A DNA stretch of 64,000 nucleotides from Archaeoglobus sp. JdFR-22 (GCA_002010045.1 MTMJ01000022.1:18832-82831); one strand, 5' to 3'; positions 31,262 to 31,565 are shown, counted from the stretch's first letter. Notes: generated by a model not told the origin, from the sequence alone. Numbers and translations are program-made.

Positions 31262-31565
31262 TAGGCAATCGCCTGCACCTTCTCGCACTATCATGCGGAA
31301 GCTCACTCACTTTTAAGTGAGGAGCTCTCTCTTGTTGCTTTGCAACAAGGAAACTCTCTCAGCTTTTGCTGAGGAGGTTTCACTGAACAAAGTTCAGGAA
31401 ATTCCTTGCTTATAGCAAGTGAATTGTCAGCACACTGACAAACCTCCGAACGTGAGTTCGTGAGCTTTAAGACGAGCAAGTTCTTAAATTGTAAAATTTA
31501 TTAAGCAAATTAAAAGTAGTGGTATCGTTTTACGATGCCACGCACCCTCCAGAGGTGCAGCTTGG
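31262..31565 (+). ncRNA. candidate structured RNA: about ten consecutive stem-loops
   Basis: See findings. Stems lie at about 31300-26, 31331-49, 31357-74, 31378-401, 31400-25, 31424-41, 31447-60 (GUGA loop), 31466-88, 31521-39 and 31549-65. The G-U pairs only work on the + strand. No known RNA family recognised. Confidence 0.3.

Follow-up and report, generated by a model that had tools for sequence, protein, structure and literature searches.

A palindrome array 3' of vapBC in an Archaeoglobus genome: a candidate REP/BIME-like DNA mosaic

A 64,000-nt stretch of the genome of Archaeoglobus sp. JdFR-22 (MTMJ01000022.1:18832–82831; referred to as the window, with positions counted from its first nucleotide) carries about a dozen hairpins packed into the spacer between the toxin gene vapC and the prolyl-tRNA synthetase gene proS. 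On balance, this array (31262–31565) is probably a young, lineage-specific and fast-evolving mosaic of DNA palindromes, comparable to repetitive extragenic palindromes (REP) and bacterial interspersed mosaic elements (BIME), located 3' of an exchanged vapBC toxin-antitoxin cassette at an insertion hot spot. The genome (G000) is a 2.06-Mb metagenome-assembled genome (MAG) of 130 contigs, representing an uncultured lineage of the Archaeoglobaceae. Four genomes of the same genus (G001–G004) were used for comparison, and homology searches covered the own genome and 60 relatives.

The vapC–proS gap measures 522 nt, and the initial annotation of this DNA rightly called it unusually long: gaps of at least 500 nt account for only 47 of 1405 crude inter-open reading frame (ORF) gaps, the 95th percentile being 430 nt. 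Its initial 200 nt are unstructured (z = +0.4), and the structured core of the array (31297–31490) folds with z = –7.5. The back-to-back hairpins listed in that annotation are all present, either at the positions given there or a few nucleotides off; the stem at 31300–31326 is bulged as described, but measures 11 bp rather than 12 bp. The complementarity of GGAGGTTT (31373–31380) and AAACCTCC (31440–31447) was likewise confirmed in the sequence, although this pair, which had been taken for a mimic of a Shine-Dalgarno (SD)/anti-SD interaction, more plausibly represents the stem of an older palindrome. The hairpins and composite units of the array are as follows (a strand is given only where one is assigned):

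31300–31326: H1, long hairpin of 11 bp with a bulged A
31331–31349: H2, short perfect hairpin of 8 bp, CTTGTTGC-TTT-GCAACAAG
31350–31381: H3, 13 bp including CTCAGC/GCTGAG, with two G-U pairs and one C·A mismatch
31383–31397: H4, short hairpin CTGAAC-AAA-GTTCAG
31400–31425: H5, 11 bp with a bulged T; outer stem AATTC/GAATT around the palindrome CTTGCT-TAT-AGCAAG
31424–31441: H6, TTGTCAG-CACA-CTGACAA
31444–31464: H7, CTCCGAAC-GTGA-GTTCGTGAG, containing CGAAC-GTGA-GTTCG
31465/31466–31488: H8, TTTAAGA-CGAGCAAGT-TCTTAAA
31489–31515: AT-rich spacer with TATA-like TTTATTAA, not present in the sister lineage described below
31516–31543, + strand: module Hc, GTGGTATCG-TTTTA-CGATGCCAC, containing GGTATCG/CGATGCC with a U·G pair
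31547–31566: module c, right copy, degenerate, CCAGAG-GTGCAG-CT-TGG; a weaker hairpin at 31542–31560/31549–31565
31297–31348: unit U1, H1 plus H2
31349–31397: unit U2, H3 plus H4, a diverged tandem duplicate of U1
31400–31441: unit U3, H5 plus H6
31444–31488: unit U4, H7 plus H8
31373–31447: outer palindrome GGAGGTTT...AAACCTCC, enclosing H4–H6

Folding of the + strand with RNAfold yielded –120 kcal/mol, as compared to –75.8 ± 4.4 kcal/mol for dinucleotide-shuffled sequences (z = –10.1; none of 100 shuffles reached the same value), so that the array clearly passes the comparison with shuffled controls proposed in the initial annotation. Most of its hairpins are still predicted when the sequence is folded at 75°C. 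When perfect stems of 6 bp or more, enclosing loops of 3–9 nt, were counted across the whole 2.06-Mb assembly (about 40,500 windows of 300 nt), the array emerged as the most hairpin-dense 300-nt window of the genome, with nine hairpins, followed by windows with seven and six; the mean is 2.5 hairpins per kb.

This strong folding is not confined to one strand. The minus strand folds with –118.8 kcal/mol (z = –7.85), which is nearly equal to the value of the + strand, and the minimum free energy structures contain seven G-U pairs each (7 of 102 pairs on the + strand, 7 of 111 on the minus strand), i.e., about 7% as compared to 12% in shuffled sequences, about 93% of the pairs being of the Watson-Crick type. 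The G-U pairs, which had been regarded as valid on the + strand only, hence do not mark that strand. The GC content of the array (42%) is close to that of the whole window (40%) and not enriched over this background, unlike that of the neighboring tRNA (61%), and the loops are mostly A/T tri- and tetraloops without a common motif. Because both strands fold equally well, G-U pairs are few and GC content is at background level, the signal looks like a DNA-level one, with the constraint or mechanism acting on the palindrome as duplex or on single-stranded DNA rather than on one RNA strand. Rfam scans of the window, the region and related loci with gathering and permissive thresholds were passed by tRNAs only; within 30900–31800 the best scores were 14–18 bits, against thresholds of 40–91 bits, and the tRNA at 33137 was the sole pass in the window. 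The initial annotation, which had recognized no known RNA family, is thus supported in this respect. Tandem Repeats Finder detected no tandem repeat in the array, and a CRISPR array was rejected, as identical, regularly spaced direct repeats were not found.

The array is single-copy in its own genome, where only short module matches occur besides, and BLAST searches did not detect a homologue in any of the 60 relatives, so that the conservation in other Archaeoglobales for which a BLASTN check had been suggested was not found. Exact matches of 15–19 nt to the gap on contigs C63, C68, C52 and C49 fall in coding DNA and look like chance. At the corresponding junction, G001–G004 harbor argS, a divergent ORF for a 96-aa zinc-ribbon protein, about 180 nt, and proS, but neither vapBC nor an array; a remnant of the zinc-ribbon gene was found neither in the vapC–proS gap nor elsewhere in G000. 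The most informative comparison is provided by a sister lineage represented by the metagenome contigs L068–L072, which were picked up via a VapC of 93% identity, and which is the closest one by ProS (81% amino acid identity, as compared to 75–76% for G001–G004). It shows the same gene order argS-vapB-vapC-proS, but its gap comprises only 242 nt (z = –2.9) and holds only three to four of the hairpins of the array. The segment 31099–31171 (with module b, see below), H2, H4–H7, the AT-rich spacer, Hc and module c are missing, and a single hairpin stands in place of H1-H2-H3. Alignment of the two gaps yields common islands only, two of which are located at 31234–31275, another one comprising a hairpin that ends in GTGAGGAGGTTCAC; an H8-like hairpin of the sister lineage has the sequence TTAAGAAT-CGCA-ATTCTTAA. 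The VapC of the window itself was found on 17 contigs from several samples, and the gap was identical to that of the window in the six contigs compared. Assemblies with the identical locus are SRR12613063, SRR12613309, SRR12613006 and JGI 3300037670, 3300037558 and 3300037537. Within its population the array is thus fixed, whereas its conservation does not extend further; being identical, the contigs of the same population carry no covariation information. A conserved noncoding RNA, as one form of the novel RNA considered in the initial annotation, is not supported, since there is no Rfam match, no homologue in the 60 relatives and no strand or GC bias, and since most hairpins are lacking in the closest lineage; a functional multi-hairpin RNA without such conservation is retained as a minority alternative and is weighed below. 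The genes and other features of the locus are:

28571–30241, – strand: argS
30351–30370: module c, left copy, perfect hairpin CCAGAG-GTGCAG-CTCTGG just upstream of the vapB promoter
30371–30391: H8-type hairpin, left copy, TAAGAC-GAGCAG-GTCTTA, a paralogue of 31465–31488 with the GNGCAG loop type of module c
30440–30679, + strand: vapB, AbrB/MazE-type antitoxin (PF04014, weak match)
30666–31091, + strand: vapC, PIN-domain toxin (PF01850)
31125–31164, + strand: module b, hairpin TGAC-TTTCAGAAAG-GTCA followed by ATCATCAAAATGAGGTGTT, a copy of a genus-wide interspersed element
31234–31275: island AAGAAATTGTG.TA.GAA, then GGCAATCGCCTG with the hairpin AGGC-AATC-GCCT, common to the sister lineage
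31566–31590, + strand: region of the TFB recognition element (BRE) and TATA box of proS, AAACAAAAGATTAATAAAAAGAG, 24 of 24 positions identical in the sister lineage
31614–33065, + strand: proS, prolyl-tRNA synthetase, start codon at 31614 or 31626
33137–33223: 87-nt tRNA, called Leu(TAA) by ARAGORN

The cassette upstream of the array has a history of its own. Window and sister lineage share 92.9% DNA identity in vapB and 89.4% in vapC, whereas the flanking argS and proS genes share only 74% and 76%, respectively; since the identity of the cassette is far above that of its flanks, vapBC has either passed between species or undergone replacement at the argS|proS junction. The vapBC segments compared were 30388–31060 of the window and 3740–4400 of L068. 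The segment of high identity begins directly after the left hairpins (30351–30391), and at the position of the left copy of module c the sister lineage shows a different hairpin, AATAGAGA-CT-TCTCTATT. Copies of c and H8 bracket vapBC in permuted order (30351–30391 and 31465–31566), the H8 duplicate at 30371, with the same GNGCAG-type loop, being the fresher one. In both lineages, a perfect hairpin is located directly upstream of the vapB promoter as well as of the proS promoter, with differing sequences; in the region preceding the TATA box of vapB (30278–30390; L068 3630–3745), the position of the palindrome is conserved, its sequence is not. Judged from these sequences, the argS|proS junction behaves as an insertion hot spot, the cargo of which differs between species.

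Within the array, units U1 and U2 are 72% identical over 36 nt (p < 0.001 as compared to shuffles), and both have retained their folds, the inner stem having undergone two double changes and the outer stem having shifted its register. All four units have the same architecture of a long bulged hairpin followed by a short one, with a recurrent GGAA-type linker and a mean column identity of 63%. H4 together with the base of H5 (31383–31405, CTGAAC-AAA-GTTCAGGAAATTCC) has a paralogue on contig C91 of the same genome (588–612, CTGAAC-TTT-GTTCAGGAAGTTCC), in which the loop is inverted. The flanks have the same orientation at both sites and only the loop is complemented, for which a single flip of the hairpin is a simpler explanation than three substitutions. 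The stem that follows the H4-like hairpin encloses only CA in C91, but the perfect palindrome CTTGCT-TAT-AGCAAG in the window, which points to a nested insertion in H5. At the place of GGAGGTTT/AAACCTCC, the sister lineage has GGTTCAC-19 nt-GTGAACC, and the loop of this older outer palindrome seems to be filled by H4–H6 in the window.

Several components of the array and its surroundings are interspersed modules. Module b occurs in four copies in G000 (in the window, at C91:639–678, C82:8497–8528 and C37:15705–15737) and in many copies in G002–G004; an 86-nt piece of the b family gave 9–18 BLAST matches per genome in G001–G004. In the relatives, the b-family element is intergenic and about 330 nt long (L009, L010, L011 and L015–L023 of G002–G004), and consists of the Hc hairpin, the b hairpin, ATCATCAAAATGRGGTAT, a GGTATT..AATACC hairpin, a long hairpin, and CCAGAA-CGCAT-TTCTGG, in this order. 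Its b hairpin has the conserved loop TTCAGAAA and covarying stems (GAAC/GTTC, GACC/GGTC, GAGC/GCTC). The Hc hairpin of the array is the same as that of the b family; its U·G wobble is kept in all copies alongside compensatory stem changes, which suggests that one strand may matter. The b element has no match in Rfam, and interpretations of module b as a C/D-box or K-turn RNA on the opposite strand or as a tRNA-like element were not supported by ARAGORN and Rfam. Some b elements are flanked on one side by a complete tRNA gene and on the other by a direct repeat of its last 23–28 nt, only about 115 nt away (L009 1342–1560, L021 and L011 of G002–G004; L004, corresponding to G000:C37 about 15560–15900). 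The genes concerned are those of tRNA-Glu (CTC) and of an intron-containing tRNA with the anticodon GAU, and the unit on C37 is tandemly duplicated. These duplications of tRNA 3' ends look like attachment-site (att)-type repeats around a miniature integrated element.

Module c (CCAGAG-GNGCAG-CTCTGG) is present in seven copies in G000, two of which flank vapBC (30351 and 31547), and was not found in 30 relatives, being lineage-specific. The copies on C5, C9 (13204–13227) and C99 (5270–5295) have T5–6 tails and lie beside ordinary genes. These tailed copies consist of a variable first hairpin, GCTTGCACTCT, CCAGAG-GTGCAG-CTCTGG and T5–6, i.e., they have the shape of a small RNA (sRNA) gene or a terminator, and the C5 copy (44230–44310; L163 about 330–410) is preceded by a TATA-like box. 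Despite the TATA-like box and T5 tail at C5, a conserved sRNA gene was rejected, as no copy was found in the relatives. A further small unit is a 44-nt cassette of two hairpins with AAA triloops (GTTAGC-AAA-GCTAAC and GTCAAC-AAA-GTTGAC), which is inserted in three of eight aligned b-family copies and also occurs as a solitary element in G001–G004 and once in G000 (C8:352–394). Sites of the cassette are L018 1540–1585, L022, L023, G001:C35:4915–4964 and G003:C55:11510–11561; its stems change in a compensatory fashion (GTCAG/CTGAC at G000:C8). From this distribution, the cassette behaves as a tiny mobile unit. The similarity of inner H5/H6 to it is suggestive only and not significant (p about 0.08), and these hairpins were not assigned to it. 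A fossil mobile element, proposed in the initial annotation among other options, comes closest to the evidence but is too simple: b, the H4/H5 base, H8, Hc and c were copied, while the remainder of the array is unique or locally duplicated.

Formation of the array may be envisaged in four steps. Small interspersed modules (b, the H4/H5 base, the GNGCAG-loop hairpins H8 and c, and Hc) would have been inserted or copied in; a unit of about 50 nt, composed of a long and a short hairpin, would then have been duplicated in tandem; palindromes may have been added within the loops of older ones, which would explain the succession of outer stem, bulge and inner stem in H1, H3, H5 and H7; and at least one hairpin would have been flipped.

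A number of observations weigh against a REP/BIME-like mosaic. H1–H3, inner H5, H6 and H7 have no detectable copy elsewhere in the own genome or the 60 relatives, so that mobile modules explain only part of the array, and its nine hairpins per 300 nt exceed the two to four found in related-family copies. As candidates for a mobilizing enzyme, neither a Y1 transposase of the REP-associated tyrosine transposase (RAYT) type nor TnpB was matched in the genome. The array is identical across contigs of the same population and hence stable within it. Moreover, the U1/U2 hairpins were kept through compensatory changes and the outer palindrome is retained in both lineages with different partners, both of which would also fit selection on structure, and Hc bears a strand-specific conserved U·G wobble.

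An alternative is that the array acts as a functional multi-hairpin RNA, either as 3' untranslated region (UTR) of the vapBC mRNA or as a processed sRNA, the repeated units of which would bind a protein, e.g., by titrating VapC or a different RNA-binding protein in the manner of a sponge or decoy, or would stabilize the toxin-antitoxin transcript. We regard this as possible but doubtful. The very strong fold, with most hairpins predicted at 75°C, the four units of one architecture with their recurrent GGAA-type linker, and the compensatory changes between U1 and U2 would be in line with it, and so would the expected transcription. In archaea, a U-tract alone is the established termination signal. 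Neither a T5 run nor a T-rich octamer occurs on the + strand across 31080–31620, so that, with no terminator between vapC and the array, transcription of vapBC is expected to continue into the latter. The array is thus probably transcribed passively, as a structured tail of vapBC, and in this passive sense the suggestion of a vapBC 3' UTR, made in the initial annotation, is plausible, its basis being the lack of a U-tract terminator between vapC and proS. Such a tail might have at most a generic effect, e.g., as a barrier to 3'-exonucleases or as a buffer before the proS promoter; the most likely function of the array is none or a generic one. Points against a specific RNA function are the lack of strand bias in energy or G-U pairs, the GC content at background level as opposed to about 61% in structural RNAs of this organism, the A/T tri- and tetraloops, which are mostly devoid of a shared motif, the lack of a match in Rfam, and the loss or absence of most hairpins in the closest lineage in spite of its having the same vapBC.

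Among the 23 PIN matches in the genome, a hairpin-dense flank occurs only at the vapC gene of the window and at a frameshifted PIN gene on C91, and no such 3' flank was detected among about 30 vapC homologues in metagenomes. A VapC-based metagenome scan returned only homologues of at most 64% identity, and the vapC homologue P0002 (69%), located in a CRISPR-cas context, was uninformative as a comparator. On C91 (144–880; L164), the region behind the frameshifted PIN pseudogene ranks third in the genome in hairpin density, which would be in line with a functional RNA. However, this region carries H4/H5-like hairpins and modules b and c, with an intact gene pair for a ribbon-helix-helix and a PIN protein directly downstream (892–1463); since b, c and the H4/H5 base are shared with the window, common colonization of accessory junctions is likelier than a PIN-specific RNA. 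As the 21 other PIN matches and the vapC homologues lack such tails, which also speaks against a functional RNA, the array was rejected as a general feature of vapC/PIN genes.

Cis-acting DNA sites of the vapBC cassette are an unlikely explanation of the array, be it as recombination sites folded in single-stranded DNA, such as attC sites or the ends of IS200/IS605 elements, or as protein-binding palindromes insulating promoters. The permuted copies of c and H8 on either side of vapBC, the start of the high-identity segment right after the left hairpins, the hairpins of differing sequence before the vapB and proS promoters in both lineages, and the variable cargo of the junction among species would agree with this idea. 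On the other hand, other copies of c flank ordinary housekeeping genes, for which reason module c was also discarded as a border marker of toxin-antitoxin cassettes, and the cassette of the sister lineage lacks c and Hc. A single binding protein would not account for all ten palindromes, the sequences of which differ. Matches to TnpB (PF07282) and to Y1 transposases/RAYT (PF01797) were not found in the genome, while control genomes gave matches, with the reservation that a MAG may miss repeats; this result lends no support to a RAYT/REP or IS200/IS605 mechanism. There is no adjacent integrase, and integron features (IntI, R'/R'' cores) were not seen, although no search for IntI was made.

It is very improbable that the array regulates proS as a structured leader or a riboswitch-like element in the manner of a T-box, as its place right before an aminoacyl-tRNA synthetase gene and the SD-like/anti-SD-like pair might suggest: the array stops about 10 nt short of the conserved TATA/BRE of proS (31566–31590), so that the promoter lies downstream of it and the long proS leader proposed in the initial annotation has to be rejected, relatives and sister lineage have proS without the array, and neither a T-box nor another Rfam family matches. 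The TATA-like sequence AAAAAAATTAATAAT precedes the proS start by 37–39 nt in G001–G004, and its positional counterpart in the window is AAAAGATTAATAAAAAG (31572–31588).

Returning to the mosaic of DNA palindromes, its components deserve attention as such. The module families appear to be undescribed, and limited literature searches gave no archaeal analogue of REP/BIME that lacks a RAYT or IS200/IS605 enzyme. The locus documents interspersed hairpin modules of the Archaeoglobaceae together with a palindrome cluster lacking such an enzyme, as well as a junction of synthetase genes, argS|proS, as a landing site for the exchange of toxin-antitoxin cassettes between species. If the proposed interpretation is correct, extreme z-scores of folding in archaeal intergenic DNA may reflect the dynamics of DNA palindromes and would not be sufficient for the annotation of noncoding RNAs. 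More far-reaching is the notion, to which we assign a small chance, that either an undescribed, transposase-independent route of making and moving small palindromes exists in the Archaeoglobaceae and is most active at this locus, or the hairpin tail was co-opted as an RNA partner of vapBC. The former would involve cassettes of two hairpins, insertions nested within loops, and flips of hairpins; in the latter case, the tail would, e.g., sequester the VapC RNase like a sponge or offer it a decoy substrate, as a new RNA adjunct to a type II toxin-antitoxin system. A hairpin RNA tied to VapC, as assumed in the functional RNA alternative, would likewise represent a new layer of toxin-antitoxin control.

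Among known systems, integron attC sites are imperfect hairpins of 57–141 nt, whereas the hairpins of the array are shorter (15–32 nt). The CsrB/RsmZ sponge sRNAs and the ToxI repeats resemble the array in their consecutive stem-loops, repeated units and, for the latter, an adjacent toxin gene, but the array has no shared loop motif, its units are strongly diverged, and it is not kept in the closest lineage. A type III ToxI-like RNA was rejected because there is no tandem repeat, column identity of the units is 63%, and the array is located downstream of a type II vapBC rather than upstream of a ToxN-type toxin gene. The palindrome-associated transposable elements (PATEs) of Haloquadratum walsbyi (PMC3119063) and miniature inverted-repeat transposable elements (MITEs) are small, hairpin-forming elements of archaeal intergenic regions which are present or absent between close relatives; the array, however, is a unique composite without clear terminal inverted repeats plus target duplication and without an IS200/IS605 partner. 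A MITE was dismissed, as the only inverted pair is one of 8 bp, CTGCACCT/AGGTGCAG at 31272/31553, for which a chance origin is possible, and as the array is single-copy and shows no target duplication; an IS200/IS605-derived PATE or a TnpB omega-RNA was dismissed for lack of a TnpA/TnpB match (PF01797, PF07282).

Closer parallels are REP, BIME and REP doublets forming hairpins (REPINs) (PMC2817692, PMC3116915). These differ from the array in that they occur in tens to hundreds of copies, while most hairpins of the array are single-copy and the module families comprise 4–18 copies per genome (seven of c and four of b in G000), in their RAYT/Y1 transposase, for which no match was obtained here, and in the host, which in the present case is an archaeon of the Archaeoglobaceae. 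They share with it the clustering of short extragenic palindromes back to back downstream of a gene, the mosaic of few module types, the rapid gain and loss between close lineages and the strand symmetry, and they can end up in 3' UTRs as well. Perfect hairpins can arise and be maintained through template switching in the course of replication (PMC8794818). Published cases of template-switch hairpins (PMC8794818, PMC5453318) are isolated and come from rRNA and eukaryotic genomes, so that about 12 successive hairpins at one locus would presuppose a local hot spot, and the array can be compared between two lineages only; nevertheless, the array resembles them in its near-perfect Watson-Crick stems with minimal loops, in multi-base changes that look compensatory, in loop inversion, and in stems that grow outward or are nested, none of which requires selection on an RNA.

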